A stretch of 61,612 bases of DNA, the filler included. It is 3 parts of 3 records of this genome, joined end to end, with 100 filler letters (N's around TTAATTAATTAA, not from the genome) between each part and the next. Parts side by side here need not be neighbours in the genome. Positions count along the whole stretch, not along the records: positions 21,828 to 43,491 come from SRR22947727_730; 2 more parts are not named here. One strand, given 5' to 3'. Within the stretch, counting starts at the first letter, position 1; each line of letters starts with the position of its first letter. This document shows positions 26,278 to 42,625 of the stretch, piece after piece. The notes under the pieces were generated by a model. The model worked only from the letters and a program-made list of their open reading frames with translations. It did not search any database and was not told the origin of the DNA. Position numbers and translations under genes: made by a program.

Positions 26278-27786
26278 CTAATCCTTCTTAAACAATTTAC
26301 TCCATTTTTTAACTCCTTCTTCATGCAAAGAGTCCCCTTCTGTATTGGCTGCCAAAGTAACGGGCATATCTTTGACTTCAAACTCATATATCCCCTCCAT
26401 CCCCAGCTCAGGAAATGCTATAAGCTTTGAAGATTTAATAGCTTGTGAAATTAGGTAGGCTGCACCGCCAATAGCAATAAAATAAACTGCTTTATTTTTT
26501 TTAATGCTCTCTAATGCTTCCTTCCCTCTCTCGGCTTTTCCAATCATGCCAATAACTCCGTAATCTTCAAGCATAAGAGATGAATACTTGTCCATCCTGG
26601 TTGATGTTGTTGGTCCAGCAGGACCTACGACCTCATTACCTACTGGGTCAACCGGACCCACGTAATAAATAAAGCGATTTTTTAAATCTAAGCCATCAGG
26701 TAATGGTTGCTTATTGTCTACCAATTCTTTTAATTTTTTATGTGCCGCATCTCTTGCTGTTAAAATTTTTCCACTGAGCAATAAACTTTGACCAAGCTTA
26801 AATTTTTCTAAATCTTTTTTCTGCAAAGTATTTAAGTTGATCCTTAGAGCTGTTTCTTTTGGCGACCACTCATCTTTAGGCCATACTTCAAGATTGGGTG
26901 GATTTAACTTAGCTGGACCCTCAGGTGGCATTCTAAAATGAATGTGTCTATTGGCAGCACAATTAGGAATAATTGCAACAGGAAGCGATGCAGCATGTGT
27001 AGGATAGTCTCTAATCTTAACATCCAAAACAGTTGTCATACCCCCAAGGCCCTGGGCACCAATACCTAATTGATTAATTTTTTCATATAACTCAATTCTT
27101 AAATTTTCAATTACATTTGATGGTCCCTTTTGAATTATTTCTTGAATATTAATAGATTCAAATAATGATTCTTTAGCCATAAGCATTGCTTTTTCTGCTG
27201 TACCACCAATCCCAACACCTAAGACACCTGGAGGACACCACCCTGCTCCCATTTTAGGTATTTCATCCAAAATAAAATCAACAATACTATCTGATGGGTT
27301 TAACATACCAAGAGAAGCTTTGTTTTCTGATCCAGCACCTTTTGCAGCAATACTTATATCCAAATTATCTCCTGGAACTAGGCTGATATGAACAACCGCA
27401 GGTGAATTATCTTTCGTATTTAACCTATCTGATATTGGGTCTTTAACAATTGAAGCTCTTAATGGATTGCCTTTATCAAGATAGGCATTTCTTACCCCTT
27501 GATTCACCATTTCCTCAATTGTTTTATCTGAATCCCATTTCAGGTCCATACCTTGTTTGACGAAGACTGTAACGATACCGGTATCTTGGCATATTGGACG
27601 GTTATTAAATGCTGAAAGTTTTGAATTTGTTAAAATTTGTAGAATGGCGTCTTTCGCAGCATCTGACCTTTCAACCTCTAATGCGCTTTTCATTGCAAGG
27701 ATAAAATCCTCAGAATGATAATAAGAAATATATTGAAGAGCGTTAGCTATCGATTCGATAAAATCATTTTTTTTTATGGCACCCAT
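26278..27786 (-). CDS. fumA: Class I (Fe-S) fumarate hydratase
   Basis: RPICQDTG, KGAGSEN, GWCPP, NCAANRH, ARDAAH and GPAGPTTSTRM motifs. Confidence 0.93.
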   Translation of the reverse strand: MGAIKKNDFIESIANALQYISYYHSEDFILAMKSALEVERSDAAKDAILQILTNSKLSAFNNRPICQDTGIVTVFVKQGMDLKWDSDKTIEEMVNQGVRNAYLDKGNPLRASIVKDPISDRLNTKDNSPAVVHISLVPGDNLDISIAAKGAGSENKASLGMLNPSDSIVDFILDEIPKMGAGWCPPGVLGVGIGGTAEKAMLMAKESLFESINIQEIIQKGPSNVIENLRIELYEKINQLGIGAQGLGGMTTVLDVKIRDYPTHAASLPVAIIPNCAANRHIHFRMPPEGPAKLNPPNLEVWPKDEWSPKETALRINLNTLQKKDLEKFKLGQSLLLSGKILTARDAAHKKLKELVDNKQPLPDGLDLKNRFIYYVGPVDPVGNEVVGPAGPTTSTRMDKYSSLMLEDYGVIGMIGKAERGKEALESIKKNKAVYFIAIGGAAYLISQAIKSSKLIAFPELGMEGIYEFEVKDMPVTLAANTEGDSLHEEGVKKWSKLFKKD

Positions 27787-29420
27787 TACCTTACATCCGA
27801 TTTTTCAATAATAATTTCTTTTGTTATTTGTTTTCTCAATATTTTTCCATTTTTTGTTTTCGGAAATTCAGTTGCTATATAAACAATTTTTGGAGCTTTA
27901 TAGGCCGCTAAGTTTTCCCTTCCATACTGAACAAATTGATTTGGATGGAGGTGGCTTGATTTATTAAGTATAATATATATAACAACAAGAACTTTTCCAT
28001 CTTCTTGCTTTTCACCCAATGCGACGCAATTCTCAATTAATTTATGAGATTTAAATACTCTTTCAATTTCATAAGGGGAAACACGATATCCAAAGCTTTT
28101 AATGATGTCATCCTTCCTGCCCAAGAACCATAAATAACCTTCTTTATCGTATCTTGCAAAATCACCCGTAAAAAACCAATTATTATTTTTATACTTTGAA
28201 GTTTCTTGATCCATATTCCAATATTTAATAAAAAGACCAGGATCGTTTTCAGGGATACAAATCATTCCCTCCTCATCCGTTTTTACTTCCTCAAGCGTCT
28301 CAGGATTTAAAAGTTTTACATCATGTCCTGGCTGTGGAAACCCAGCAGACCCAGGTTTTATAGGATATTTTACTGATTGAGATATATAATATGAGAATTC
28401 GGACATTCCTACTGCCTCATATATGTTTAAATTAAATCTCTCAAACCAGGAATTAAAAATTTCATCAGATAAATGCTCACCAGCGCTCATGCAATGGTGT
28501 AGTGTTGGGACATTAGTCTTGTTTGCTTCTGTTTTTTTTAAAATTTGTCGATATATGGTTGGTACACCGATAAAAATAGTTGCCTTGTGTTTTTCAATTA
28601 AATTAATCCATCCATCTGCATCATTTTTACCCTCATGAACGATGACAGTTTTCCCCAGATAGAGAGGATCCATTAGCCCTGAACCAAGAACATAAGTCCA
28701 ATTAAACTTTCCTGTATGCACTATTCTGTCATCTGGATTTATAAAATTAAACCAATATTTTGAAGCTGGGCCTCTTCCCAATAGAGCTCTATGCGCATGA
28801 AGAACTCCTTTTGGGTATCCTGTCGTGCCTGAGGTATAGACAAGATAGGCCGGATCTTCAGAAAAAGTTTTTGGGTTCTCAGTCAAAGAAGTAATATTAT
28901 TTAATTCTTTATCCAGCGACAAAACTTCCATCCCACTTCTACAATCTTCAAACTCCCCAGAAATGAAAACCTTTTTTAAATATTTGAAATCACTTAACAT
29001 GGGCAAAAGTGATTTCCATGTTTTAAGATCTGTTACCAATACCTCTGCAGAAGAGTCATTTGCTAGATATAAAATTTCTTTTGGTGTTAGTAAGGTTGAA
29101 GTAGGTACTGATATACACGCTGCTTTCATGGTGCCTAAGAAAGAAATTGGGTAATGTAAACAATTTGAAAGTCTTATAAGAATTCTAGACTGCTTTTTAA
29201 GTTTAAGATTCTTTAAAAATTCAGCAAATTGATTAGATTTTGTAGCTAAGATTTCATAAGTGATTGAAGATGTTCCCTTTATATCATCTTCAACAATCAT
29301 AGCAATTTTATCTTTTTTACCCTCTTTGCAAACCCTGTCAGAACAAGCCTCTCCAATATTAAAGAATTTCGGAATGCTCCATTTCCATTTAGTTTGATTA
29401 GCATTTTGATAAACAGTCAT
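27786..29420 (-). CDS. AMP-forming acyl-CoA synthetase, substrate unknown (start revised to ATG 29420)
   Basis: YTSGTTGYPKG AMP-binding motif, TGD, GRKDDIIKSFGYRVSPYEIE, PKTKNGKILR; TAATG overlaps with both neighbours. Confidence 0.9.
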   Translation of the reverse strand: MTVYQNANQTKWKWSIPKFFNIGEACSDRVCKEGKKDKIAMIVEDDIKGTSSITYEILATKSNQFAEFLKNLKLKKQSRILIRLSNCLHYPISFLGTMKAACISVPTSTLLTPKEILYLANDSSAEVLVTDLKTWKSLLPMLSDFKYLKKVFISGEFEDCRSGMEVLSLDKELNNITSLTENPKTFSEDPAYLVYTSGTTGYPKGVLHAHRALLGRGPASKYWFNFINPDDRIVHTGKFNWTYVLGSGLMDPLYLGKTVIVHEGKNDADGWINLIEKHKATIFIGVPTIYRQILKKTEANKTNVPTLHHCMSAGEHLSDEIFNSWFERFNLNIYEAVGMSEFSYYISQSVKYPIKPGSAGFPQPGHDVKLLNPETLEEVKTDEEGMICIPENDPGLFIKYWNMDQETSKYKNNNWFFTGDFARYDKEGYLWFLGRKDDIIKSFGYRVSPYEIERVFKSHKLIENCVALGEKQEDGKVLVVIYIILNKSSHLHPNQFVQYGRENLAAYKAPKIVYIATEFPKTKNGKILRKQITKEIIIEKSDVR

Positions 29421-30595
29421 TACTGAATTTCTCCATAAGGCCAATTTTGCCTTATAACCTGTTGGGGAAGTTTATTTAAGACTTCTAAAGTAAAGCCTAT
29501 ATCATCATCTTTCAATGCATTCAGTGCATAAGCTCTCAGAAGTGTTTGTAATGCTTTTCCGAACATTGGTGGGTCTAACATCTCACCCTCAAATTTAATT
29601 GCACCGCCCTCAAGTGCATCGGCTTCTATCGCTGCTTTTAAAATCCTTATTTTAAGTTTTATATCTGTAGGTGATGGAGTATAAGCTACCTTACAAAGGT
29701 GGATATGTCCTGGATGAATAACTTGCTTACCTGTTAGACCTAATTCTCTCTCTCTAACGGCATGCTTGTATACAATTCTCGACTCATCGTCACCGTGTAA
29801 ATCCAACCAACGCCTAACATCGTGTGGCTCTAAAAAATTACTTGGCATAATTGTTTGTCCAATCAAGGTTTCAACGCCACCAATTACACCCTTACCAGAA
29901 ATTCTTGCTTCAAACATAAGTTGATTCAAAAAGAAATTAAGTTCATCAATCCATCCTATTGGGGTGATGTTTATCCCCATTGCCTTTGAGAAGTCATGAA
30001 TCCCAAAAACTACATGTTTTACTGAGGAGAATGCCATGAGATCAGTTGCAATTTTCAAAGATTTTGGATGCTCGATAATTGGCTGTATTGTGATTTTTTC
30101 ATTAAGGTCAACAAGGTTACTTGAAAGATCTCTTATCTCTGCTGCACCATAAACCTCGCCGGCTTTTGACAACATTACTACGTCAATACATTCAGGTAGT
30201 TTTTTTAAAAACTCTAAATCGTTTATATATTCCTCCGTTCGAAACGGATTAATTCGAATTGCTATGCTGATATCTGGTCGGCTTTCTCTTAACCCAAGAA
30301 GTTCTTTTTCTAACAAAGTTCGACTCATTTCTTTTTGTCGACACCCATCCTCTAAATCAAATATTATGGTGTGAGCTTCAGTCGTATAAGCATGCTTTTT
30401 CATTCTTTTTGCAGCACCAATTAGATCTTCATAAACGCCTGAGGATGGTGAATATTTTACCGGAGGATAATAAAGCTGAATGCCTGGCCAGACACCTCCT
30501 AGAAGGTCATGGCTAAGATGGTCAATTTCAATTTTTTGATGCTGCCTTGAAATTTTATTTTTCACTTTCAATTTCCTTTTGATTTTTAGGGTCAA
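29420..30595 (-). CDS. CitE/HpcH-superfamily acyl-CoA C-C lyase (start may be GTG 30565)
   Basis: IFDLEDG, IRIN, IIEHP, FGIHDF, GKQVIHP, YTPS and GEMLDPP motifs of the CitE/malyl-CoA lyase fold. Confidence 0.85.
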   Translation of the reverse strand: MTLKIKRKLKVKNKISRQHQKIEIDHLSHDLLGGVWPGIQLYYPPVKYSPSSGVYEDLIGAAKRMKKHAYTTEAHTIIFDLEDGCRQKEMSRTLLEKELLGLRESRPDISIAIRINPFRTEEYINDLEFLKKLPECIDVVMLSKAGEVYGAAEIRDLSSNLVDLNEKITIQPIIEHPKSLKIATDLMAFSSVKHVVFGIHDFSKAMGINITPIGWIDELNFFLNQLMFEARISGKGVIGGVETLIGQTIMPSNFLEPHDVRRWLDLHGDDESRIVYKHAVRERELGLTGKQVIHPGHIHLCKVAYTPSPTDIKLKIRILKAAIEADALEGGAIKFEGEMLDPPMFGKALQTLLRAYALNALKDDDIGFTLEVLNKLPQQVIRQNWPYGEIQ

Positions 30596-30809
30596 TTAAG
30601 TTAACTAATGAATTATATTTTTTGGAATAATGTTTAGAATCTAAGGCATGCCAAATATCATTGTCATCCATTTCTAAAAACTCTAAAAAAAGTTTTTTCT
30701 TCTCATTTGATAAATGGAAGAATTTATTTTCATAGAAATTATTTAGAATCAAATCAAGTTCTAATAACCCTCTTCTGCAGCGATATTTAATAAGATTGTT
30801 TAATGTCAT
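30555..30809 (-). CDS. sdhE: Succinate dehydrogenase flavinylation factor
   Basis: YRCRRGLLELD motif; follows sdhB. Confidence 0.93.
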   Translation of the reverse strand: MTLNNLIKYRCRRGLLELDLILNNFYENKFFHLSNEKKKLFLEFLEMDDNDIWHALDSKHYSKKYNSLVNLIDPKNQKEIESEK

Positions 30810-31552
30810 TTTTTTGATTCTTGCACATGAAATATTTTTTTTAAGGTTTTAAATTTTGGTTTTTTAGTTGTCATTTGCATTTTTTTGATCCCTGCAATTG
30901 CTTTCGAGGGACTTAAGCCTTTTGGGCAAACATCTGCACAATTCATAATATTATGACAACGGTACAATCGATCAGGATCATCAAGATCTTCAAGACGCTC
31001 CTCATTTGCGTCATCCCTACTATCTACTAAAAATCTATAGGCTTGAAGTAAGCCTGCTGGTCCTACAAATTTATCAGGTTTCCACCAAAATGAAGGGCAT
31101 GAAGTTGTACAAGCGCCACATTGTATACATTCATACAAGCCATCAAGCTTTTTTCTATCCTCTGGAGACTGTAAACGCTCTTTCTTAGGTGGAGGTTTTT
31201 TATTTTTAAGATATGGGTCTATTGAATCGTAATGTTTAAAAAATTGCTTCATATCCACTACAAGATCTCTTATCACAGGAAGCCCAGGAATAGGTCTAAT
31301 AACTATAGGTTTTTTTAGGTCATCAATTTTTGTAACGCATGCTAGGCCATTTTTACCATTTATATTCATTGCATCAGAGCCACAAACACCTTCACGACAT
31401 GACATTCTCATCGAAAGTGAATCATCCATAGCTTTTATTTTTATTAATAAATCTAATAGCATCGTATCGGAATCAGCTCTCTTTACGTCGTAAACCTTGT
31501 TGTATGGTTTTTTATCTTTATCTGGATTAAATCTGTAAATTGAAATTTTCAT
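30806..31552 (-). CDS. sdhB: Succinate dehydrogenase iron-sulfur subunit
   Basis: SCREGVCGSD, ECIQCGACTTSCP and CHNIMNCADVCP motifs. Confidence 0.98.
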   Translation of the reverse strand: MKISIYRFNPDKDKKPYNKVYDVKRADSDTMLLDLLIKIKAMDDSLSMRMSCREGVCGSDAMNINGKNGLACVTKIDDLKKPIVIRPIPGLPVIRDLVVDMKQFFKHYDSIDPYLKNKKPPPKKERLQSPEDRKKLDGLYECIQCGACTTSCPSFWWKPDKFVGPAGLLQAYRFLVDSRDDANEERLEDLDDPDRLYRCHNIMNCADVCPKGLSPSKAIAGIKKMQMTTKKPKFKTLKKIFHVQESKK

Positions 31553-31559: not shown

Positions 31560-33308
31560 TCAATAAACCCTTTCTTTTAACGGAAATGATTTAACACTTA
31601 AAGGTTGCATTTTTACAGGTCGGTAAGCTAAAGATCCATCTTTTGGGCTATATAAGGAATGTTTTAACCAAGAATTATCATCTCTTTTTGGATAATCAGA
31701 CCTTGAATGCGCCCCTCTACTTTCCTCTCTATTTTTGGCTGAAGCCATTGTTGCTAAAGCGACCTCAATTAAGTTTTGTAACTCAAGTGCTTCCGATCTT
31801 GCTGTGTTGAAAACTTTAGAATTATCTTTAATAGATATATTTCTTATTCTCTGCTTCAAATCAACTACCTTACCCAGTCCCTCATTAAGTAGTTCTGGAG
31901 TGCGAAAAACACCACAATGTTTTTGCATTACCGCTCTTAGCTCTTCACCTAACTCCCTTGGATCCTCCAAAGAGCCTTTTGTATCTATTTTTTTTAATCT
32001 TTCTATAGTTTTTTTTGTTACATCATTAGGTAGTTTTTTTAACTTCTTTCCTTTTGATGAATCTAGAATATGTTGGCCAGCTGCTTTTCCGAAAACAATC
32101 AAATCTAAAAGAGAGTTAGATCCTAGGCGATTTGCACCATGAACAGAAACGCATGCGCATTCTCCCACTGCATAAAAACCATTTACTTCTTTTTGTTTGA
32201 CACCATCTCTGACTTGGCCATTCAAGGTTGTTGGAATTCCTCCCATCATATAGTGAACTGTTGGGACAACAGGGACTGGATCCTTAACAGGGTCAACATT
32301 TGCAAATTTAATTGAGATCTCTCTAATCCCAGGTAACTTTTCGTTTATTAACTCTTCACCCAAATGAGATAAAGTGAGATAAACACCATTTTTATTGGCA
32401 CCAATTCCCCTTCCCTCCAAAACCTCTTGAGCAATTGATCTTGAAATTACATCTCTACTTGCTAAATCTTTTGCGCTCGGCGCGTAACGCTCCATAAAGC
32501 GTTCATTTTTTGAATTTATTAGATAGCCCCCTTCACCACGAACACCCTCTGTAACGAGGACACCCGCACCAAGAATTCCAGTGGGATGAAATTGCCAAAA
32601 CTCCATATCTTCTAAGCTAATATTTGCTCTTGCTGCCATGCCTAGACCATCGCCTGTATTTATGAACGCATTAGTGCTTGCTTGAAAAATTCTTCCCGCC
32701 CCACCTGTTGCGAAAATAGTATTCTTTGCATGAAAGATGCCCAAATCCCCTGTTTGCAGTTCCAAGGCAATTAATCCAAGAACATCTCCATCCTCATCCC
32801 TAATCAGATCTAGACCAATCCATTCAATAAAAAATTGTGTCTTAAGCTCAATATTTTTTTGATAAAGGGTATGCAGCATTGCATGTCCCGTTCTGTCTGC
32901 CACCGCACAAGTTCTTGAGATTGATGACTCACCAAAGTTTTTTGTCATTCCACCAAATGGTCTCTGATAAATACGGCCATCATTATTTCTATCAAAAGGC
33001 ATTCCCATATGTTCAAGTTCATATATCGCTTCAGGTGCATTTTTGCACATGTATTCGATAGCATCCTGGTCACCTAGATAATCTGAGCCTTTGATCGTGT
33101 CATACATGTGCCATAACCATTTATCATCAGAAACATTAGCTAGCGCTGCAGCAATACCTCCTTGGGCAGCAACAGTATGAGATCTGGTAGGAAAAACTTT
33201 TGAAATAACAGCTACACTTTGACCCGCACCAGCAAGTTGCATAGATGTTCTTAATCCAGCACCACCGCCACCAACAACAATAGAATCAAATTCAAAATTT
33301 TTAACCAT
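31560..33308 (-). CDS. sdhA: Succinate dehydrogenase flavoprotein subunit
   Basis: [16 protein letters not shown] (FAD-His), QFHPTG and [13 protein letters not shown] motifs. Confidence 0.98.
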
Positions 33309-33654
33309 TAAAAATCACCAATAAGAAATAAGGTAAATATATAAGTTGCGCGAGCGTTAGAAGTAAAAAAATTATATTTATTAAAGTCTTCAAAAAACTA
33401 AATTTAATATAGTCATCAATCACGTGCTGAACCCCAATCCATGCATGAATAATCATAAATAAAAAAAAAATAAAGGTTGTCCATCTCATCCATAAAGGTG
33501 ACATTAAAGCCACCCATGATTCGAAAGTAAATGCATTAAAAAAAAGATAAAATACAATAATTCCTGAGTAGGCAATCATAAAAAATGCTGTAAACCTTTG
33601 ATAAAGCCATTGCGTCATTCCACCAAATGGAGATTTTAGGCTAACTCTACTCAA
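33301..33654 (-). CDS. sdhD: Succinate dehydrogenase membrane anchor
   Basis: WLYQRFTA and [13 protein letters not shown] motifs. Confidence 0.93.
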
Positions 33655-34016: not shown

Positions 34017-34024
34017 AGTCTGAA

Positions 34025-35212: not shown

Positions 35213-35220
35213 TAATTTTC

Positions 35221-35928: not shown

Positions 35929-35956
35929 AAATAAATTCCAATTAAATTTAAAAAAT

Positions 35957-35977
35957 TCTTATATATCTTATATAAGA
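35957..35977. promoter_or_regulatory. Candidate SdhR operator 1
   Basis: Perfect 12-bp palindrome TCTTATATAAGA (35966-35977) preceded by an extra TCTTATATA half-repeat. Confidence 0.75.
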
Positions 35978-36088
35978 GTTATTAATTAATCAACATATAT
36001 TTAAAAAAATATTTATAGGGTAAAAATTATATTAAATTATTGTTTTTAAACGTATTTATGATAATAAATTTAAATTTAATTCATATAC

Positions 36089-36100
36089 TCTTATATAAGA
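36089..36100. promoter_or_regulatory. Candidate SdhR operator 2
   Basis: Second exact TCTTATATAAGA, 13 nt upstream of the -35 of the rightward promoter. Confidence 0.75.
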
Positions 36101-36113
36101 CTTTAAAAATTTA

Positions 36114-36142
36114 TTGACATATATTTTACATATGCCTAAAAT
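36114..36142 (+). promoter_or_regulatory. sigma70 promoter of the mcl2-mch-lyase-prpBCD operon
   Basis: TTGACA (36114-36119), 17-nt spacer, TAAAAT (36137-36142). Confidence 0.7.
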
Positions 36143-36171
36143 CGTTGCAATTAATGTAATTGTATATTTTT

Positions 36172-37047
36172 ATGACAAAATATTTTCGTCCAAGAAGGTC
36201 GATGCTTTATGTTCCTGGTTGCAATAGGCGTTACTTGGAAAAAGCAAAGACTTTAAAAGTTGACTCCATTATTCTTGACTTAGGTGATCCAATTCTGATC
36301 GAAGCTAAAGAGGAATCAAGATCAAATGTTGTTGATTTTTTAAACCAAAAAAAATACGGAAAACGTGAGGTTGTTGTTAGGGTTAATGACTTTGACTCAC
36401 CTTGGGGGATAAATGACATTAAGGCTGTAGCAAATGCAGAACCTGACGCTGTTCTTTTTCCCAATATTGAGTCAAGCCAAGATGTTTTAAATGCGATTAA
36501 TGAGCTTGATAAAGCAGGTGGAAAGAACATACCTGTCATGCTGATGATTGAAAGCCCTAAGGGCGTTTTACATGCCGAGGAAATTGCAGCGACATCTTCA
36601 AGGATTGCATGCCTAATACTTGCTACATCAGATTTGATTTCACAGTTACATGCAAGAACAACGCAAACTAGAGTGGCTGTCCTCCACAGCCTATCCCGAG
36701 TAATTCTTGCTGCAAGGGCTTATGATCTTGCTGTCATTGACGGCATTCATAGCAATCTTAAGGCTACAGATGCCTTTGAGTATGCATGTAGAATTGGTCG
36801 TGATATGGGTTTTGATGGAAAATCTTTGGTACACCCCGACCAACTACCCTACGCAAATGACGCCTATTCTCCCAAATTAAGTGAAGTTAAAAATGCTCGT
36901 GAGATTATCTCTTCTCTCGCCGAAGCAAATGCTACAGGGAGAGGCACAGTCGTGGTAAACGATAGGTTAGTTGAGCACCACCATGTAAATGCAGCCAAAA
37001 GACTTCTCGGGCTCCACGAGTTGATTGAGGAGTTAAGTAATGAGTAA
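36172..37047 (+). CDS. CitE-family protein most like (3S)-malyl-CoA thioesterase Mcl2
   Basis: RRSMLYVPG..LEKA, VVRVN, MIESPKGVLHAEEIAA, GRDMGFDGKSLVHP and GTVVVNDRLVE recall Rhodobacter Mcl2; the usual DLED reads DLGD here. Confidence 0.8.
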   Translation: MTKYFRPRRSMLYVPGCNRRYLEKAKTLKVDSIILDLGDPILIEAKEESRSNVVDFLNQKKYGKREVVVRVNDFDSPWGINDIKAVANAEPDAVLFPNIESSQDVLNAINELDKAGGKNIPVMLMIESPKGVLHAEEIAATSSRIACLILATSDLISQLHARTTQTRVAVLHSLSRVILAARAYDLAVIDGIHSNLKATDAFEYACRIGRDMGFDGKSLVHPDQLPYANDAYSPKLSEVKNAREIISSLAEANATGRGTVVVNDRLVEHHHVNAAKRLLGLHELIEELSNE

Positions 37048-38104
37048 GATAGGTGGAAATTTTCTTGAAGACTTTCAATACGGTGACATAATTCATCATG
37101 CTATACCAAGATCTATTACCTCTGGTGATGCATCCATGTTTCTTGGTCTGACTGGGACGAGGTATCCCCTATTTTGCGCTAAAAACTTTGCAAATTCTCT
37201 AGGTTATGATTCAACACCAGTTGATGACATTCTTTTATTTAATATCGCTTTTGGAAGAACTGTTCAGGATATTTCCCTAAATGCAGTGGCAAACCTTGGC
37301 TATGCAGAGGTTATATTCCATTCGCCTGTTTTTTTTGGTGATACCGTTTCTAGTCAATCTGAGATTATAGGCATCAAAGAAAACTCAAATAAAACTAATG
37401 GGATTGTTTATGTCCATTCATCTAGCTTTAATCAACACGATAAAATGGTATTGAGCTGGAAGCGTTGGGTGATGATTCCAAAAAGAGATAAAAATAAAAC
37501 TATAAAAGAAGTTCTCCCTAAAAATATAAAACCTGAAGTTGCGGTTGAACGAATGAATATTCCTGGCTTTCTTAAAACAAATAACTTTAATGACATAGCT
37601 TCGGGCTCATCATTAAGGTGGGAGGACTATCATGAAAACGATGAAGTTAATCATAGTCGAGGGCTTACCATTGATGAAACCTCACATACCTTAGCAACTC
37701 ATTTATATCAAAATGATGCAAAGTTGCATTTTAATGCGCATCAAATGAAAGCCTCTCCATTTAAAAGAAGACTTGTTTATGGTGGACACGTTATATCGTT
37801 GTGCCGCTCTATTGCTCACGAGGGCTTTGAAAACAACCTTATCATGACAGCTATTCATGCAGGAACTCACTCAAATCCTGTCTTGGCAGACGACACGTTA
37901 TATGCGAAAACAATTATCACTGGCAAGGATGAATTGCCAGATCATCAAGATATTGGAGTTTTAAAACTAAAGTTAATAGGTATTAAAAACCAAATACCGA
38001 GCTCGCTAAAATCTATTTATCAAGAGAATGTAGAAAGTAAAATTTATAACAAAAATGTTGTTTTAGATCTTGATTACAGCATTGTTGTGCCTAAAGGAAA
38101 ATAA
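37040..38104 (+). CDS. mch: Mesaconyl-CoA hydratase / beta-methylmalyl-CoA dehydratase (double MaoC hot-dog)
   Basis: GNFLEDF, HAIPRS, FGRTVQDISLNAVANLGYAE, IGIKENSN, RWVM.PKRD, YQNDAKLHFN and VYGGHVIS, all characteristic of Mch. Confidence 0.88.
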   Translation: MSKIGGNFLEDFQYGDIIHHAIPRSITSGDASMFLGLTGTRYPLFCAKNFANSLGYDSTPVDDILLFNIAFGRTVQDISLNAVANLGYAEVIFHSPVFFGDTVSSQSEIIGIKENSNKTNGIVYVHSSSFNQHDKMVLSWKRWVMIPKRDKNKTIKEVLPKNIKPEVAVERMNIPGFLKTNNFNDIASGSSLRWEDYHENDEVNHSRGLTIDETSHTLATHLYQNDAKLHFNAHQMKASPFKRRLVYGGHVISLCRSIAHEGFENNLIMTAIHAGTHSNPVLADDTLYAKTIITGKDELPDHQDIGVLKLKLIGIKNQIPSSLKSIYQENVESKIYNKNVVLDLDYSIVVPKGK

Positions 38105-38105
38105 T

Positions 38106-39095
38106 ATGAAACTAGTTCACCCAAACGAAGCCCTTTTTCAGGGAGAAAAACCGTTCCCAGCTATCCCATGCTGTGAACATTTTGCAGGTAGTGAGAAATT
38201 AATTACAAAAGCACTATCATTTCAAGAGGAGCTTGGTCCTATTTTTGATATTACTTGTGATTGTGAAGATGGAGCTGCAACTGGCCAAGAAGAAGAACAC
38301 GCAGAGATGATTGTAAAAGTTTTAAGCTCTGACCTGAATAAATATAAAATGGCTGGAGTAAGGATACATGATTATACCCATTCCTCCTGGAAGAAAGATG
38401 TTGACATTATTTTGAGCGGGATTGGAGAAATTGTTTCTTATATCACCATACCAAAATCAACAACTTTTTCTCAGGTCGATGAAATGGTTAGTTATATTAA
38501 AAATAGATCTAATGAGCTTGGGATAGAAAAAGCTATACCCATTCATATTCTTATTGAAACACATGGTGCCCTTAAGGATGTTCAACAAATTGCAACTATT
38601 GATTGGGTTCAAGTCCTTGATTTTGGTCTAATGGATTTTGTGAGTGGTCATCATGGGGCAATCCCAGCCAGTGCGATGCGAAGCCCTGGACAATTTGATC
38701 ACAAACTTCTCTCAAGAGCAAAATCTGAAGTTGTCGCGGCCGCAATTGGCAACGGTGTAATTCCTGCCCACAATGTAACGCTCGACCTAAAAAATGCAGA
38801 GGTAACTCATAGTGATGCTAAACGTGCTCGAGAAGAGTTTGGATTTTTAAGGATGTGGAGTATTTATCCAACTCAAATTAAGGCAATTGTTGATGGAATG
38901 AAGCCAGATTATAGTGAAGTAATTGATGGGGCAAAAATTTTACTTGAGGCTCAAAAATCAAATTGGGGACCAATACAATATGCTGGAGAATTGCATGATA
39001 GAGCAACTTACCGATATTTTTGGAAAATGCTTCAAACTGCAAAACTTTCAGGGATGGCACTTCCAGATGATTCGGTAAATGCTTTTTTTAGCTAA
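38106..39095 (+). CDS. HpcH/CitE-family lyase, the type found next to mdh/sdh in Betaproteobacteria (start revised to ATG 38106)
   Basis: HPNEALF, CEHFAGSEK, DCEDGA, VRIHD, LIETHGAL, DFGLMDFVS, RMWSIYP, ELHDRATYRYFW. Confidence 0.85.
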   Translation: MKLVHPNEALFQGEKPFPAIPCCEHFAGSEKLITKALSFQEELGPIFDITCDCEDGAATGQEEEHAEMIVKVLSSDLNKYKMAGVRIHDYTHSSWKKDVDIILSGIGEIVSYITIPKSTTFSQVDEMVSYIKNRSNELGIEKAIPIHILIETHGALKDVQQIATIDWVQVLDFGLMDFVSGHHGAIPASAMRSPGQFDHKLLSRAKSEVVAAAIGNGVIPAHNVTLDLKNAEVTHSDAKRAREEFGFLRMWSIYPTQIKAIVDGMKPDYSEVIDGAKILLEAQKSNWGPIQYAGELHDRATYRYFWKMLQTAKLSGMALPDDSVNAFFS

Positions 39096-39989
39096 ATGAC
39101 TATGGAAAATAAAATGACTCCGGGGCTATTATTTAAAAAAGCTATTGAAGCGGAAAGGCCTTTACAAGTTATTGGCGCTATAAACGCTTACCATGCAAAA
39201 TTTGCAGAAAAAACAGGATACAAAGCGATTTATTTATCAGGTGGTGGAGTTGCAGCTGGCTCCCTAGGCGTTCCTGATTTAGGTATCTCAACCTTAGAGG
39301 ATGTATTAATTGATATAAGAAGGATTACAGATTCGACATCACTCCCCCTCCTTGTTGATGTTGATACAGGATTTGGTGGTGCCTTCAATATTGCAAGAAC
39401 GATTCGCAGTGTAGAAAAATCAGGTGCTGCTGCAGTTCATATAGAAGATCAAATTCAAGCAAAAAGATGCGGACATCGTCCAAATAAGTCAATCGTTAGC
39501 CAGAATGAAATGGTGGATCGAATAAAAAGTGCGGTAGATGCAAAAAATGATGAAAATTTTGTCATTATGGCAAGGACAGATGCCTTGGCAGTGGAAGGCT
39601 TGCAATCTGCAATCGATAGAGCTTGCGCATGCGTTGAGGCTGGTGCAGATATGATTTTCCCCGAGGCAATAAATGATTTGGATACCTATAAAAAGTTTAC
39701 AAAATCTCTTGATGTCCCTGTACTGGCTAATATTACTGAATTTGGTGCCACCCCATTGTTTTCTTTAGATGAATTAGATTCTGTAGGTATAGCTATCGCT
39801 CTTTACCCTTTGAGTGCATTTAGGGCGATGAATAAGGCAGCCCTCAACATATACAAAGGTCTCAGGAAAGAAGGAACACAAAAAAATCTGGTTGAACAAA
39901 TGCAGACAAGAGAGGAATTATACGAATTTCTTGATTATCATGAATACGAAAAAAAACTCGATCAACTTTTTAAAAAAGAAAAAGACTGA
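39096..39989 (+). CDS. prpB: 2-methylisocitrate lyase
   Basis: KRCGH signature (isocitrate lyase has KKCGH), [21 protein letters not shown]. Confidence 0.97.
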
Positions 39990-40000
39990 GGAGGTTATGT

Positions 40001-41143
40001 ATGCCAACTGAACCTAAAAAAGTAAAAAAAGGTGTCGCTTTAGCAGGCGTTAATGCTGGGACAACTGCTGTTTGCACAGTGGGTCATTCAGGAAACGATT
40101 TACATTATCGTGGGTACGATATTCTAGAGTTAGCTAAAGAATGCTCATTTGAAGAAGTTGCTTTTTTACTCATTCACGGTGAACTTCCAAATGTCACGCA
40201 ATTGGATAAATACACAAATCAACTAAAAAAATTAAGAGATATACCCGCTCATCTTAAAACAGTTTTAGAACAAATTCCTAAAGATGCGCATCCTATGGAT
40301 GTAATGCGCACGGGATGTTCAATGCTTGGGATTTTAGAGCCTGAAGCTAGCGATCACAATATTGATAAAACCAAAAAGATAGCAGATCGACTTATATCAT
40401 GCTTCAGTTCAATTTTAATTTATTGGTATAAATTTTCTCATGAAGGTATACGTATTGAATGCAAAACAGATGAGGACTCTATTGCTGGACATTTTCTTCA
40501 TTTGCTCCACGGTAAGACCCCTTCATCATTACATGAGAGGTCTATGAATATTTCATTGATACTTTATGCTGAACATGAATTTAATGCTTCAACATTTGCT
40601 GCAAGGGTCATCACAGGAACATTATCTGATTTATATTCCTCTATCACAGGAGCAATCGGTGCACTCAGAGGCCCAAAACATGGTGGCGCCAACGAGGTAG
40701 CAATGGAAATCATCAGTCGCTATAACACACCCGATGAAGCTGAAGCTGATATAAGGGCGCGCATGGCTAAAAAAGAAATTATTATAGGCTTTGGACATCC
40801 AGTGTATACAATTTCTGATCCCAGAAATGAGTGTATCAAAGAAGTATCAAGAAATTTATCTGAAGATTCTGGGGATATGAAACTCTTTAAGATATCAGAT
40901 CGTATTGAAAAAGTGATGTGGGAAGAGAAAAAAATGTTTCCTAACCTTGATTGGTATAGTGCCTCCTGTTACCACTTAATGGGAATTCCAACATCAATGT
41001 TTACTCCTATATTCGTCATATCAAGAACATCTGGTTGGGCTGCGCACGCTATAGAACAAAGGATTGATAACAGAATTATTAGGCCAAATGCTGAATATAA
41101 TGGCCCAGCTGATAGACCAATAGCACCAATACAACAAAGATAA
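40001..41143 (+). CDS. prpC: 2-methylcitrate synthase
   Basis: [40 protein letters not shown]; lies between prpB and prpD. Confidence 0.95.
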
Positions 41144-41161
41144 AAAAAAGGAAAATAAAGA

Positions 41162-42625
41162 TTGAGCTTACATGTTAAAAAAAATAATCAAAAACCCGAC
41201 GAGATACTAGTTAATATCGCAAATTATGTATTTGATTACAAAATTAAAAGTAATGAGGCTTTAGAAACAGCAAAAAACTGTCTTATTGATACCTTAGGTT
41301 GTGGCTTGGAAGCTTTGGACTACCCTGCCTGTGTTAAGCATTTGGGGCCGATTGTACCTGGTTCCATTGTTCCAAATGGAACAAAAATTCCTGGAACTAA
41401 CTTTCAACTTGATCCAATAAATGGGGCATTTAATATTGGGGCAATGATCCGTTGGCTTGATTTTAACGACACTTGGCTGGCAGCCGAATGGGGCCATCCA
41501 TCAGATAATCTGGGTGGGATTCTTGCTGTAGCAGATTGGGTTTCAAGAACAAAAGTTTCAAACAAGGAAAAACCACTTCAAATGAAAGTCGTTCTTGAAG
41601 CGATGATCAAAGCTCATGAAATACAGGGCGTTATTGCATTAGAAAATAGCTTCAATCGTGTTGGGCTTGATCATGTTGTTTTAGTAAAAATTGCAACAAC
41701 CGCCGTTGTATCACAGATGCTTGGTGCATCAAAAGAGCAAATAATAGATGCGCTATCAAATGCATGGGTAGACGGCCAGAGCTTAAGAACTTATCGACAT
41801 GCTCCCAATACGGGATCAAGAAAATCATGGGCTGCAGGTGATGCAACAAGTCGAGGGGTAAGGTTAGCATTAATGACAATGAAGGGTGAGATGGGTTATC
41901 CAACAGCACTTAGCGCAAAAATATGGGGATTTTATGACGTTTTATTTAATGGTAAACCATTTAAATTTAACCAAGAGTTCGGTAGCTATGTAATGGAAAA
42001 TATTTTATTTAAAATTAGTTTTCCCGCTGAATTTCATGCTCAAACAGCTGTCGAGTGTGCATTAAAACTTCATAAAAATGAATTTCATAAAATCGATAAA
42101 GTTGAAAAAATAGATGCAATTGACCATATTAATATTACAACTCATGAGTCTGCGATTAGAATTATAGACAAAACTGGACCTTTAACCAACCCTGCCGATC
42201 GAGATCATTGCATCCAATATATGGTTGCCATTGGCTTACTTAAGGGAAATTTAACAGCGCAAGACTATGAGGACGAAGTCGCAATTGATCCAAGGATTGA
42301 TCTTCTCAGAAAAAAAATGAAATGTATTGAAAAAAAAGAATATACGGCAGATTATCTTGATCCAAATAAAAGGTCCATTGCGAATGCCATTCAAATATTT
42401 TACAAAGACGGTAACAAATCAGAACTGATTGAAGTTGAATACCCAATTGGCCACCAACGAAGACGTGATGAAGGTATTCCTAAGCTGATTGAAAAATTCA
42501 AGGTCAATCTTTCTCGGCAGTTTGATGAACTGCAATCAAAAAAAATACTTGAAAAAAGCCTTAATTATGAAATTCTTGAGCAGATTCCGGTTAATGAGTA
42601 TATGGATCTATACTGGAAAAATTAG
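41162..42625 (+). CDS. prpD: 2-methylcitrate dehydratase
   Basis: [58 protein letters not shown]. Confidence 0.97.

Follow-up and report, generated by a model that had tools for sequence, protein, structure and literature searches.

The methylcitric acid cycle cluster of small methanol-using Methylophilaceae has already been described (PMC4109929, PMC3728764), as an earlier note on this DNA had stated of the methylcitrate genes in this family. The cluster is known, not new, and the pathway it may carry is a plausible candidate. Its expression has been reported for Methylotenera in situ, with the gntR orthologue among its most induced genes (PMC3728764), and for OM43 with high-molecular-weight dissolved organic matter. 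Published gene lists name its 552-aa ligase prpE (PMC4109929) and show its malic enzyme as 'mdh'. Outside the family, a 2007 paper on Arcobacter butzleri drew up a hybrid citramalate/methylcitrate scheme (PMC2147049), and Haloarcula offers a described precedent for Mch together with mesaconate activation (PMC5592240).

The window analysed here, a stretch of 61,612 nucleotides, is made of three contigs joined by N44-TTAATTAATTAA-N44 spacers (21728-21827 and 43492-43591), and the whole locus lies inside the middle contig. ORF calls and family profiles placed all the genes named in the earlier note within 26278-42625, confirming its gene calls, together with one GntR regulator. This GntR/UTRA regulator was absent from that note's gene list. 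The features are as follows.

26278-27786, minus strand: fused alpha+beta class I (Fe-S) fumarase, 502 aa (Pfam Fumerase 318 bits, Fumerase_C 262 bits)
27786-29444, minus strand: AMP-forming acyl-CoA ligase, 552 aa (Pfam AMP-binding 228 bits)
29420-30595, minus strand: CitE-like cyl3, 391 aa, lyase-competent (Pfam HpcH_HpaI 43.8 bits; six residues kept)
30555-30809, minus strand: sdhE, FAD assembly factor (Pfam Sdh5 56.3 bits)
30806-31552, minus strand: sdhB, iron-sulfur subunit (NF004616 357 bits vs 228)
31560-33308, minus strand: sdhA, flavoprotein subunit (TIGR01816 894.9 bits vs 727)
33301-33654, minus strand: sdhD, membrane anchor (TIGR02968 74.6 bits vs 41.8)
33651-34058, minus strand: sdhC, cytochrome b556 (TIGR02970 104.8 bits vs 52.3)
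34025-35212, minus strand: short malic enzyme, 395 aa, without PTA-like domain (Pfam malic 110 bits, Malic_M 91 bits)
35221-35928, minus strand: GntR/HutC-type regulator, winged HTH plus UTRA (Pfam GntR 73.6 bits, UTRA 101.3 bits)
35966-35977, no strand: operator-like perfect 12-nt palindrome TCTTATATAAGA, copy 1, 38 nt upstream of the gntR start
36089-36100, no strand: operator-like palindrome, copy 2, 14 nt upstream of the -35 hexamer of the cyl1 operon
36114-36142, plus strand: best predicted sigma-70-like promoter of the region, TTGACA-17 nt-TAAAAT (11/12 consensus matches, top-scoring)
36160-37047, plus strand: CitE-like cyl1, Mcl2-type thioesterase signature (Glu for lid Asp, Gly for Glu44)
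37040-38104, plus strand: Mch-like double hot-dog hydratase, 354 aa (Pfam MC_hydratase 77 bits vs 26.5)
38070-39095, plus strand: CitE-like cyl2, 341 aa, lyase-competent (3qqw E 1.5e-145; six residues kept)
39096-39989, plus strand: prpB, 2-methylisocitrate lyase (NF008455 531 bits vs 353; TIGR02317 431 vs 354)
40001-41143, plus strand: prpC, 2-methylcitrate synthase (NF009006 672 bits vs 550)
41162-42625, plus strand: prpD, 2-methylcitrate dehydratase (NF006943 864 bits vs 575; TIGR02330 842 vs 458)

The genes form a single divergon. Its minus-strand arm reads, in transcription order, gntR, malic enzyme, sdhC, sdhD, sdhA, sdhB, sdhE, cyl3, acyl-CoA ligase and fumarase, and its plus-strand arm cyl1, mch, cyl2, prpB, prpC and prpD, with cyl2 lying between mch and prpB. 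Gene order is identical in three genomes of the same genus (G005, G008 and G015) and is also kept in the majority of the 80 related loci that were compared; the arrangement is more than chance. None of the window's other 36 ORFs scanned proved to be an isocitrate lyase, ethylmalonyl-CoA or glutamate mutase gene, in agreement with the earlier note, but since the window consists of joined contigs with the locus wholly in the middle one, this absence says little.

Both arms appear to share one control region. Its 231 bp hold the two palindrome copies, and the palindrome, with one mismatch at most, occurs in the gntR-cyl1 intergenic region of all 54 loci that have both genes and in none of the seven loci without gntR. 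Outside the gntR-cyl1 region, the exact 12-mer has no occurrence in the genomes of five complete relatives. In both M. flagellatus and Pseudomethylobacillus a second copy of the palindrome precedes a panD-acs operon; in the former, mqo flanks the other copy. These observations argue for co-regulation of both arms by GntR through a shared putative operator, in line with the co-regulated locus proposed earlier; the predicted promoter at 36114-36142 is a consensus match only. Furthermore, contigs from four metatranscriptome runs (four studies) span 28-30 of 30 bins across both arms, a coverage that consists of contigs only and may include DNA carry-over.

The Mch-like protein is, judged by sequence, a mesaconyl-CoA hydratase / beta-methylmalyl-CoA dehydratase, aligning over nearly its full length with PDB 4e3e (E 4e-92) and with 8hgn (E 6e-86), the latter deposited as beta-methylmalyl-CoA dehydratase. 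None of the three CitE-like paralogues reaches an equivalog cut-off of the NCBIfam profiles. In cyl1 the catalytic Asp of all other CitE-like enzymes is Glu, a change reported only for the malyl-CoA thioesterase clade (PMC3832036), which bears out the Mcl2-like thioesterase of the earlier note; at the lid position, 76 of 80 orthologues have Glu, four have Gln and none has Asp. The likely start of cyl1 is the ATG at 36172, giving a product of 291 aa, and its closest database relatives, among the matches listed, mostly measure 291-293 aa. The two further CitE-type lyases announced in that note are cyl2 and cyl3, which retain every catalytic and metal residue. The six residues are invariant in 98/98 orthologues of cyl2, whose family includes 3QQW and 3R4I, both uncharacterised structures, and in 63/63 of cyl3, with a lid Asp in 61/61. 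The cyl3 gene shares 25 nt with the ligase gene, and its start codon is uncertain. Each of the five complete relatives has exactly three HpcH/CitE genes, every one inside the locus.

Mesaconate is the substrate that we infer for the 552-aa ligase. The best 25 of its 104 NCBIfam matches are all below cut-off, the top one being MbcS (295 bits vs a cut-off of 850), and its nearest solved relatives, the 4-hydroxybutyrate-, medium-chain-, acetate- and benzoate-CoA ligases, all act on monocarboxylates, which counts against mesaconate. An acetate-CoA ligase above the equivalog cut-off adjoins some clusters besides the 552-aa enzyme (flanks of 6/80 loci; directly after prpD in 3/40), which argues that the latter is not PrpE. 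The malic enzyme aligns to positions 7-401 of the 764-position NADP-malic-enzyme model. The fumarase exceeds the cut-offs of both TIGR00722 and TIGR00723; all five complete relatives have one class I fumarase and no fumC above cut-off, so that its presence is explained without a mesaconase role, and it may act as a mesaconase as well. Outside Methylophilaceae no fumarase adjoins the module described below, as seen in Methylophaga, Gallionella and the stand-alone cases. The earlier interpretation was thus partly supported, in its gene calls, its thioesterase and the absence of rival pathways, while its citramalyl-CoA synthesis from acetyl-CoA and pyruvate, its mesaconate-CoA ligase, its mesaconase and its direction of flow are candidates only.

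That absence was seen at the level of whole genomes. None of the five complete relatives encodes isocitrate lyase (aceA), malate synthase, family III CoA-transferase (mct), B12 acyl-CoA mutase (MM_CoA_mutase), sucA, methylaspartate ammonia-lyase or, above cut-off, ccr, and acnB is present in them outside the cluster, which answers the genome search proposed in the earlier note. With no ccr over cut-off and no B12 mutase in the relatives, the ethylmalonyl-CoA pathway, raised there as a competing reason for mch and the lyases, is not their explanation. Isocitrate lyase was also missing from five module-bearing genomes of other families, and GlcD above cut-off from the relatives. Mqo occurs in four of five genomes searched; in G032, the nearest complete relative, no Mqo was found, an apparent gap in oxaloacetate regeneration that counts against the cycle proposed below.

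Comparison across families argues that the ligase, mch and the three CitE genes travel together as a five-gene module. Among the 38 loci whose flanks are complete, 27 have the ligase gene, cyl1, mch and cyl3 beside cyl2; Sedimenticola, Aliikangiella and Kangiellaceae carry the module by itself, with neither prp nor gntR. When the class was sampled evenly, 15 of 401 genomes had a cyl2 relative, five of these 15 having the whole module adjacent. The gene directly 3' of cyl2 is prpB in 61 of the 74 loci that leave room for it; where the module is not beside prp, prpB above cut-off is found elsewhere in three of five genomes. The cluster of M. flagellatus, cyl1-mch-cyl2-prpBCD, is incomplete, cyl3 and the ligase not being found within 10 kb.

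The best explanation, which we hold tentatively, is a GntR-controlled divergon that joins a methylcitrate cycle to a five-gene CoA-ester module making propionyl-CoA and glyoxylate. The first unit would be an ordinary methylcitrate cycle, with PrpC, PrpD and PrpB here and AcnB at another place in the genome; SdhCDAB together with SdhE, and then the cell's only fumarase, would take succinate to malate, malic enzyme being there as well. In the second, the ligase would convert mesaconate to mesaconyl-C1-CoA, Mch would hydrate this to beta-methylmalyl-CoA, and a lyase-competent CitE paralogue, probably cyl2, would split it into propionyl-CoA and glyoxylate. A second lyase would condense glyoxylate with acetyl-CoA to malyl-CoA, for hydrolysis to malate by the Mcl2-like cyl1, while propionyl-CoA would yield pyruvate and succinate through the methylcitrate cycle. 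We lean slightly towards flow in this direction. The most likely source of mesaconate would be (S)-citramalyl-CoA, made by a lyase from acetyl-CoA and pyruvate, hydrolysed by cyl1 to citramalate and dehydrated by the class I fumarase. If closed, the cycle would turn two acetyl-CoA into malate without isocitrate lyase, and malic enzyme together with pyruvate dehydrogenase could allow complete oxidation of acetyl-CoA with no need for 2-oxoglutarate dehydrogenase. Full closure seems doubtful, however: for known citramalyl-CoA lyases the condensation of acetyl-CoA with pyruvate is the unfavourable direction, and the characterised Mcl2 is reported to be specific for malyl-CoA, which counts against hydrolysis of citramalyl-CoA by cyl1. 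Nor is growth of Methylophilaceae on acetate known, and the proposed cycle would cost two ATP equivalents per turn.

The same enzyme evidence would also support open catabolism of C5 dicarboxylates, an unlikely reading in which mesaconate, citramalate or a similar branched C5 acid taken up from outside would give propionyl-CoA and glyoxylate, to be cleared by the methylcitrate cycle and an apparent malate synthase. Citramalyl-CoA would not be made from acetyl-CoA and pyruvate, which sidesteps the unfavourable condensation. Induction of the cluster by environmental conditions or dissolved organic matter, not by C1 substrates, fits this reading, and the Berg laboratory has made the case that soils may commonly contain branched C5-dicarboxylates (PMC12290011). 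However, neither the locus nor the conserved flanks of related loci contain a transporter gene, the acs association suggests C2 or C3 acids, and a 16-kb locus in 1.3-Mb streamlined genomes would be odd, as sea water is not known to be rich in such a substrate. We give a similarly low probability to the reading annotated in the literature, a methylcitrate cycle alone, serving propionate use or detoxification of internal propionyl-CoA, with the ligase as PrpE and the three CitE paralogues and Mch doing some other, perhaps unrelated job. PrpBCD, Sdh, fumarase and AcnB do amount to the complete textbook pathway, and both the published name prpE (PMC4109929) and the ligase's solved relatives, which use short- and medium-chain monocarboxylates, agree with it. 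Yet four or five tightly conserved, co-regulated genes would be left without a role, the module including its ligase also occurs without adjacent prp genes, some clusters carry the extra Acs-type ligase, none of the ligase's best 25 of 104 NCBIfam matches attains its curated cut-off, and the authors of the literature themselves call the metabolite processed by the cluster unknown.

Operation in reverse is improbable too, although it is the thermodynamically downhill direction. Propionyl-CoA and glyoxylate would then give beta-methylmalyl-CoA and mesaconyl-C1-CoA, citramalyl-CoA would be split into acetyl-CoA and pyruvate, and thioesterase plus ligase would stand in for the missing intramolecular CoA-transferase, a substitution made conceivable by the absence of family III CoA-transferases. 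Mch-family enzymes hydrate C1 and C4 esters alike, of the two solved structures nearest to Mch one bears that pathway's step name, beta-methylmalyl-CoA dehydratase, and cyl3, ligase and fumarase are consecutive here, with a ligase-CitE fusion in A. butzleri AB1918 (PMC2147049). On the other side, no glyoxylate source to feed this direction was seen in the relatives (isocitrate lyase 0/5; no GlcD above cut-off), and an Mcl2-type enzyme suits glyoxylate consumption with acetyl-CoA. The module and PrpC would also vie for propionyl-CoA within one regulon, and the candidate thioesterase is a CitE-fold protein; the substrates known for this fold, as may be deduced from PMC3832036, are 3-hydroxy-3-carboxyacyl-CoAs, whereas mesaconyl-CoA is an enoyl-CoA.

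Known systems offer a counterpart for either direction. Running in reverse, the locus would be like the second cycle of the 3-hydroxypropionate bi-cycle, the direction favoured in the A. butzleri paper (PMC2147049). That organism has the same kind of module, with the ligase fused to a CitE domain in AB1918, and grows on neither acetate nor propionate (PMC2147049), which counts against our best explanation. In the direction of our best explanation, towards propionyl-CoA and glyoxylate, the five-gene module would resemble the closing steps of the methylaspartate and ethylmalonyl-CoA pathways.

The locus at 26278-42625 consists of two divergent operons separated by an AT-rich spacer of 231 bp. 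The earlier note had named its genes correctly throughout, and the only omission was the regulator, which combines an N-terminal winged helix-turn-helix domain (GntR, 73.6 bits) with a C-terminal UTRA domain (101.3 bits) and thus belongs to the GntR/HutC type.

Genes of the locus, each operon in order of transcription
gntR, minus strand: GntR/UTRA regulator
mae, minus strand: short malic enzyme of 395 aa without a PTA-like domain
sdhC, sdhD, sdhA, sdhB and sdhE, minus strand, in this order
cyl3, minus strand: CitE-like protein of 391 aa
ligase, minus strand: AMP-forming acyl-CoA ligase of 552 aa, its gene overlapping cyl3 by 25 nt
fumarase, minus strand: fused class I fumarase of 502 aa
cyl1, plus strand: CitE-like protein of 295 aa or, more likely, 291 aa
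mch, plus strand: Mch-like double hot-dog hydratase of 354 aa
cyl2, plus strand: CitE-like protein of 341 aa
prpB, prpC and prpD, plus strand, in this order: methylcitrate cycle genes

PrpB (531 bits against a cut-off of 353), PrpC (672 against 550) and PrpD (864 against 575) as well as SdhA, SdhB, SdhC and SdhD all exceeded the curated NCBIfam cut-offs. Spacers of the form N44-TTAATTAATTAA-N44 at 21728-21827 and 43492-43591 indicated that the window is made of three artificially joined contigs. The locus lies entirely within the middle one (21828-43491), and genes left of 21728 or right of 43591 need not be its neighbors. The middle contig was collinear with the complete chromosome of Methylophilaceae bacterium Uisw_099_01 (G032) at 81-88% nucleotide identity, the glnD-fumarase junction included. 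An 84-aa ORF convergent with prpD (42622-42876, minus strand) gave no Pfam or NCBIfam match, and its position was kept in G005, G015, L018, L024, L028 and L050 at 49-90% identity. On the first contig, pqqE, pqqD, pqqC and pqqB-like genes (radical SAM/SPASM, PqqD, PQQC and MBL families) were found at 1747-4878, as expected for a methanol-dehydrogenase-dependent methylotroph. On the third contig, the ORF at 43607-44896 matches ClpB in its C-terminal half alone (model positions 444-852); since it begins directly after the second spacer, it was taken as a gene cut by the contig edge and its reading as a truncated pseudogene was rejected. The same contig holds at 53599-61611, in order, a 1030-aa ORF and a 422-aa ORF (both without a Pfam match), a HAMP-SpoIIE phosphatase and an nSTAND1 NTPase running off the end, which may form a variable or defense-type island unrelated to the locus.

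The three CitE-like paralogs share only 21-23% pairwise identity, indicating that they are old and not recent copies. According to the available text of Zarzycki and Kerfeld (PMC3832036), the entire CitE-like superfamily keeps Arg76, Asp299, Glu141, Asp168, Glu44 and Asp45 (R. sphaeroides Mcl1 numbering), with the malyl-CoA thioesterase clade, in which Glu replaces Asp299, as the sole exception. In alignments to 4l9y, cyl2 and cyl3 retained all six residues, whereas cyl1 differed at two of the six sites, with Glu272 at the position of the lid Asp299 and Gly at that of Glu44. The same pattern was observed across all fetched loci. The six positions were invariant in 98/98 cyl2 and 63/63 cyl3 sequences (lid Asp in 61/61 of the latter), and the lid position of cyl1 was Glu in 76/80, Gln in 4/80 and Asp in 0/80, its Glu44 position never being Glu. 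At the residue level, the claim that the locus encodes one Mcl2-like thioesterase and two lyases is thus supported as a prediction. The 120 best database relatives of cyl1 carried generic names only and none tied it to a characterized Mcl2, and the scores of the CitE paralogs lay far below every equivalog cut-off. cyl2 fell into the family of the structural-genomics entries 3QQW (E 1.5e-145) and 3R4I (E 8e-108), both listed without a function. In a protein atlas, cyl3 matched generic CitE clusters and, at 0.90, a haloarchaeal malate-synthase-like cluster, which serves as a lead only.

The hydratase exceeded the cut-off of the Pfam mesaconyl-CoA hydratase family (PF19315; 77 bits against 26.5, residues 5-313) and aligned over almost its full length with 4e3e (E 4e-92) and with 8hgn (E 6e-86, residues 5-352), the latter deposited as "beta-methylmalyl-CoA dehydratase". 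By its double hot-dog match it is a member of the mesaconyl-CoA hydratase family, and it is predicted to hydrate mesaconyl-C1-CoA to beta-methylmalyl-CoA; the Haloarcula Mch is described in the available part of PMC5592240 as hydrating the C4 ester as well. The ligase exceeded no curated cut-off among the 25 best of 104 NCBIfam matches, and on the same 25 families it was not PrpE by model. For Acs-type ligases beside related clusters, the PrpE model (cut-off 827) gave 534-560 bits. The nearest solved relatives of the ligase use monocarboxylates, and a dicarboxylate as its putative substrate is the weakest link of the scheme discussed below. A search for longer, fused proteins with cyl3 as a query returned none, and the ligase as a query returned NRPS-type matches and one ligase-mannitol dehydrogenase fusion. 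This single record (P0001, 1039 aa) joins a ligase 53% identical to that of the locus with mannitol dehydrogenase domains and may be a gene-calling or assembly artifact. As evidence on which CitE paralog pairs with the fused ligase of Arcobacter, the fusion searches are weak either way.

To define the distribution of the locus, relatives of cyl2 were searched; 573 stretches encoded one, and the best 80 loci were examined. Among these, mch was directly upstream of cyl2 in 56/64 and prpB directly downstream in 61/74 of the loci with room. Moreover, cyl1, mch, cyl3 and the ligase gene all lay in the flanks of cyl2 in 27/38 full-flank loci, revealing a five-gene module that was found in four layouts.

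Layouts of the five-gene module
Methylophilaceae: the full cluster, including sdh
Methylophaga: ligase-cyl3-mae-gntR facing cyl1-mch-cyl2-prpBCD, without sdh and fumarase
Gallionella: ligase-cyl3-gntR facing cyl1-mch-cyl2
Sedimenticola, Aliikangiella, Kangiellaceae and others: a bare cyl3-ligase-cyl1-mch operon facing cyl2, with neither gntR nor prp nearby

When the class was sampled evenly, a cyl2 relative (E 1e-60 or better) occurred in 15/401 genomes and 11/309 genera, and 5/15 of these genomes carried the whole module. PrpB scored over its cut-off elsewhere in 3/5 genomes whose module was not beside prp, and the other two held only a sub-threshold relative. No ICL over the cut-off was detected in the module-bearing genomes of other families (0/5), which is only a hint, given the missing base rate and the non-independence of relatives. 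The flanks of stand-alone modules contained no transporter or other gene hinting at a substrate. In the stand-alone module of Aliikangiella marina, a 4HBT hot-dog gene directly downstream of cyl2 (L085, 11193-11630) encodes a candidate extra thioesterase. More distant cyl2 relatives occurred in other contexts, some of them adjoining gntR-sdhCDAB-gltA in the same taxonomic order; in three such loci (L126-L128, from genomes G028, G314 and G160) relatives of 37-45% identity lay divergently upstream of gntR-sdhCDAB-gltA. The link of a CitE-like gene with a GntR regulator and sdh may therefore be older than the methylcitrate association.

The spacer between the operons holds two copies of a perfect palindrome, TCTTATATAAGA, at 35966 and 36089. 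The first copy lies 38 nt upstream of gntR, and the second precedes the region's best promoter-like site by 14 nt. Alone, a pair of copies in the window is unremarkable, as 11/100 shuffles equaled this number, and the palindrome becomes convincing through its conservation. Allowing one mismatch at most, it was present in the gntR-cyl1 spacer of 54/54 loci containing both genes, including those of Methylophaga and Gallionella, and in 0/7 full-flank loci without gntR. In five complete genomes, the exact 12-mer was confined to the gntR-cyl1 spacer. From this pattern we infer that the palindrome is the operator of the GntR regulator. In Methylobacillus flagellatus (L084, 358-7604) and Pseudomethylobacillus (L088), a second copy preceded a panD-acs operon; the identification of the neighboring gntR and panD concerns only the M. 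flagellatus locus, where mqo is the divergent neighbor of cyl1 and flanks the copy upstream of it. In these species the regulon seems to include an acetate-CoA ligase, aspartate decarboxylase (which catalyzes a CoA precursor step) and malate:quinone oxidoreductase. An acetate-CoA ligase over the equivalog cut-off also followed prpD in 3/40 loci with room. Among OM43-like and LSUCC-type relatives, L022 (14596-18334), L058 (14776-16734) and L050 have a true acetate-CoA ligase directly after prpD; in L022 an aldehyde dehydrogenase comes next. These links suggest that the regulon extends to acetate or propionate activation, and the existence of separate acetate-CoA ligases makes it unlikely that the 552-aa ligase is merely an acetate/propionate ligase. 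Taken together, the conserved palindrome and the acs links lend good support to the inferred co-regulation of the locus.

The first descriptions of the cluster are reportedly those of Lapidus 2011, Chistoserdova 2011, Kalyuzhnaya 2008 and Chistoserdova 2007. As the earlier note had stated, methylcitrate genes are already in print for Methylophilaceae, where the available text of PMC3728764 and PMC4109929 describes a "methylcitric acid cycle (MCC)" cluster (mmol_0748-0766 of Methylotenera mobilis and m301_0686-0703 of M. versatilis; PMC3728764). In the same parts of PMC3728764, the cluster was transcribed more strongly than the RuMP genes in situ, with gntR among the most induced genes. The retrieved portions of PMC6794327 report that marine OM43 have conserved the cluster whereas Ca. 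Methylopumilus has lost it, and those of PMC5120137 report that high-molecular-weight dissolved organic matter raised prpBCD and the succinate-to-oxaloacetate arm in OM43 strain NB0046. Throughout the accessible Methylophilaceae literature from 2013 to 2025, the role of the cluster was called unknown or was given without a defined substrate. The same texts yielded no published role for cyl1-3 or maoC (the mch gene of this study) in Methylophilaceae, although the founding papers may contain a proposal, and no link of Methylophilaceae to a mesaconyl-CoA branch was found in the literature searched. In public runs, the region 34000-40000 was present in 19 listed runs, 13 of them RNA-labeled, from 14 studies. 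From four metatranscriptome runs, each of a different study, contigs covered 28-30 of 30 bins between 25500 and 43500 on both arms (95% identity or more), in agreement with the published transcript data; these are contigs only and show neither strand nor transcript ends, DNA carry-over is possible, and depths or relative expression cannot be ranked. In two studies, an adapter-tailed contig ended at 35914, inside the gntR reading frame.

Among the 36 other ORFs scanned in the window, no ICL and no gene of the ethylmalonyl-CoA or glutamate mutase routes was seen, just as had been noticed from the sequence, and this absence carries little weight because the window is three joined contigs. Genome-wide searches were therefore run on relatives, namely the complete same-genus genomes G002, G005, G010 and G012, which carry the syntenic locus, each time joined either by the same-species MAG G001 (91% complete; set A) or by G032 (set B).

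Genome-wide searches in relatives (five genomes per set)
Isocitrate lyase (aceA), set A: over cut-off in 0/5; PrpB alone matched, at 64-70 bits
Malate synthase (TIM barrel), set A: 0/5
Family III CoA-transferase (CoA_transf_3; Mct), set A: 0/5
B12-dependent acyl-CoA mutase (MM_CoA_mutase), set A: 0/5
2-Oxoglutarate dehydrogenase E1 (sucA), set A: 0/5
ccr, set A: over cut-off in 0/5
HpcH/CitE genes, set A: exactly three per genome, all within the locus, in 4/5 (G002, G005, G010 and G012); none in G001
Aconitase family, set A: leuC and acnB only
Methylaspartate ammonia-lyase, set B: 0/5, a weak result as control genomes also fell below the cut-off
GlcD, set B: none over cut-off
Class I fumarase, set B: one per genome, the locus copy
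fumC, set B: none over cut-off
sucC, set B: 5/5
HMGL-like genes, set B: two per genome, LeuA-type and pyruvate-carboxylase-type
Mqo, set B: present in G002, G005, G010 and G012, not found in G032

With only LeuA-type and pyruvate-carboxylase-type HMGL-like genes, these genomes have no separate CimA. The aconitase that the methylcitrate cycle needs for rehydrating 2-methyl-cis-aconitate is not encoded in the window, but all five set A relatives, G001 included, have an AcnB-type protein, with open frames of 859-917 aa. In G032, malate could reach oxaloacetate through malic enzyme and pyruvate carboxylase as one possibility. As for glycolate oxidase as a glyoxylate source, the sole match was a fused FAD/Fe-S protein of about 1300 aa far below the cut-off, and the candidate was rejected. 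G001 matched the window at 99-100% over 16000-26392 only. Its contig C15 begins, at position 1, within the fumarase gene (26392 of the window), and the search of G001 with 26393-61612 gave nothing at that identity, the only matches being weak clp-like ones of 73-75%; PrpB and CitE genes were likewise not found in it. The missing locus in this MAG probably reflects an assembly or binning break and not a true absence.

The earlier note had left aceA, mct, sucAB and acnB to the whole genome, and in the relatives the first three (with sucA for sucAB) are missing and the last is present. A full ethylmalonyl-CoA pathway elsewhere, which would have explained mch and mcl in another way, is ruled out for these relatives by the ccr and mutase results (0/5 each), and the same negatives remove the 3-hydroxypropionate and methylaspartate contexts. 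The proposal of a citramalate/mesaconate-methylcitrate hybrid cycle therefore stood in part: the gene identities, the thioesterase/lyase split and the lack of an ethylmalonyl-CoA pathway in relatives held, but the fumarase lent it nothing. Class I fumarases generally hydrate mesaconate, according to the text available of PMC4682846; nevertheless, the conversion of succinate to malate needs a fumarase anyway and each genome has only one, so its presence is no sign of a mesaconase function.

Each protein of the module has a precedent at the end of the methylaspartate or ethylmalonyl-CoA pathway, and for this reason we favor a reaction series that would use all five genes. An activating enzyme would make mesaconyl-C1-CoA, Mch would convert it into beta-methylmalyl-CoA, a lyase would cleave this into propionyl-CoA and glyoxylate, and a lyase together with the thioesterase would form malate from glyoxylate and acetyl-CoA. 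Because the lyase would yield propionyl-CoA, the location of the module beside a propionyl-CoA consumer (prp) finds an explanation. An Mcl2-type enzyme implies that glyoxylate is consumed with acetyl-CoA, which fits this series, and flow in this direction needs no glyoxylate source, none having been found in the relatives. On balance we lean towards flow to propionyl-CoA and glyoxylate. The reverse, 3-hydroxypropionate-like direction would run through the same intermediates as the Chloroflexus 3-hydroxypropionate bi-cycle and its glyoxylate-assimilation cycle (Mcl, Mch, Mct and Meh; PMC3832036 and PMC9813914, as far as their available text goes), and one of the two solved structures nearest to the hydratase is deposited as beta-methylmalyl-CoA dehydratase. 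That system differs in having Mct and Meh, whereas neither Mct nor a separate Meh is found here, and in relying on one trifunctional lyase in place of three CitE paralogs. Flow in the present locus is probably opposite to that of the Chloroflexus cycle, and the reverse direction appears the most improbable of the readings considered.

Open catabolism of external C5 dicarboxylates is unlikely, too. Among known systems, the degradation of itaconate, mesaconate and methylsuccinate (Ict, Ich and Ccl), as presented in the accessible parts of PMC12290011 and PMC4682846, shares with the locus a CitE-type acyl-CoA lyase, a hydratase of the MaoC type and a class I fumarase for C5 dicarboxylates, the fumarase acting there as a mesaconase. 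The corresponding models scored far below their cut-offs here (RipB/Ich 102 bits against 340; RipC/Ccl 136 against 375, for cyl1), and the locus differs from that pathway in lacking a CoA-transferase, a methylsuccinyl-CoA dehydrogenase and an MmgE-type isomerase. A plain methylcitrate cycle, the extra genes doing something else, is held to be unlikely to a similar degree; the prp genes are firmly assigned and the module also occurs away from them, and the forward series accounts for the two standing together. As to how that forward series might be closed, acetyl-CoA and pyruvate would be joined to citramalyl-CoA, which would pass through citramalate to mesaconate, as first proposed from the sequence, so that the module and the methylcitrate cycle would form a closed citramalate-methylcitrate cycle. 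Such closure is attractive because it gives a job to every gene of the divergon including malic enzyme, requires no transporter, suits organisms without ICL, malate synthase and 2-oxoglutarate dehydrogenase, and agrees with the acs link. It is costly in that the lyase must run in an unfavorable direction, cyl1 must hydrolyze two substrates and the ligase must accept a dicarboxylate. We regard the closed cycle as possible, though doubtful.

Coastal seas and lakes harbor OM43 and related Methylophilaceae among their most abundant methylotrophs, and the obligate methylotrophy of this family is usually blamed on an incomplete TCA cycle. If the closed cycle were true, "obligate" RuMP methylotrophs (OM43, other Methylophilaceae and Methylophaga) would gain an ICL-free equivalent of the glyoxylate cycle and, with malic enzyme and pyruvate dehydrogenase, complete oxidation of acetyl-CoA without 2-oxoglutarate dehydrogenase, and the "incomplete TCA cycle" would not be what restricts them to C1 compounds. 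With the extra enzymes feeding the methylcitrate cycle from acetyl-CoA and pyruvate, C2 units could be assimilated and oxidized, and models of carbon use would change. In other bacteria without ICL, the module would represent a portable substitute for the glyoxylate cycle, and the old idea of a "citramalate cycle" would be revived in a new form. The cluster was already known and the hypothesis had been in print before, for Arcobacter butzleri. New here are the residue census, which predicts one thioesterase-like and two lyase-like paralogs; the five-gene module, whose movement does not depend on prp, sdh or the fumarase; the conserved operator-like palindrome, unique in each genome; the acs, mqo and panD links in some relatives; and the negative whole-genome searches, together with the finding that the fumarase is the only one of the cell. 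The question is old and is now sharply testable, with proteins matched to steps, a favored direction, and an operator and regulator named.

Compared with the MCC cluster of Methylotenera, the locus has the same divergent layout, and aconitase lies outside the cluster here, as reported for OM43; the printed "mdh" of that cluster is malic enzyme and its printed "prpE" fits no PrpE model. The closest published scheme is that of Miller et al. (2007) for A. butzleri. The available text of PMC2147049 describes a CitE / ligase-CitE / hydratase / CitE / class I fumarase cluster and names mesaconyl-CoA synthetase, citramalate hydrolase, citramalate lyase, beta-methylmalyl-CoA lyase and malyl-CoA hydrolase as its activities. 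Both systems share the kinds of proteins (CitE-like proteins, an AMP-forming ligase, a MaoC-type hydratase and a class I fumarase), and in both schemes pyruvate and acetyl-CoA would be linked with glyoxylate and propionyl-CoA and coupled to the methylcitrate cycle. The A. butzleri system differs in belonging to another phylum, in its ligase fused to a CitE domain, and in a methylcitrate route via AcnD/PrpF that is not adjacent; moreover, its authors favored the opposite direction, the scheme being on paper there too.

Similarities extend to the pathways from which the enzyme precedents come. The end of the ethylmalonyl-CoA pathway of R. sphaeroides, in the text available of PMC3832036, comprises Mch, the lyase Mcl1 and the paralogous thioesterase Mcl2, as would be the case here, and the Glu typical of the Mcl2 clade is also present in cyl1. 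That pathway has one lyase paralog against two in the locus, and with no ccr over the cut-off and no B12 mutase in the relatives, nothing would make mesaconyl-CoA from crotonyl-CoA. In haloarchaea, the latter half of the methylaspartate cycle (Mct, Mch, beta-methylmalyl-CoA lyase and apparent malate synthase; accessible parts of PMC5592240 and PMC3832036) follows the same logic, from mesaconate through mesaconyl-C1-CoA, then beta-methylmalyl-CoA, to propionyl-CoA and glyoxylate, with glyoxylate and acetyl-CoA yielding malate, and likewise employs two CitE-like enzymes and Mch. The haloarchaeal cycle includes a methylaspartate ammonia-lyase, which was found in 0/5 relatives here with a weak control. 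Activation there depends on a succinyl-CoA-dependent family III transferase (0/5 in the relatives), whereas here an ATP-dependent ligase would activate mesaconate. Propionyl-CoA, which in the methylaspartate cycle passes through carboxylation and a B12 mutase (0/5), would here enter the methylcitrate cycle.
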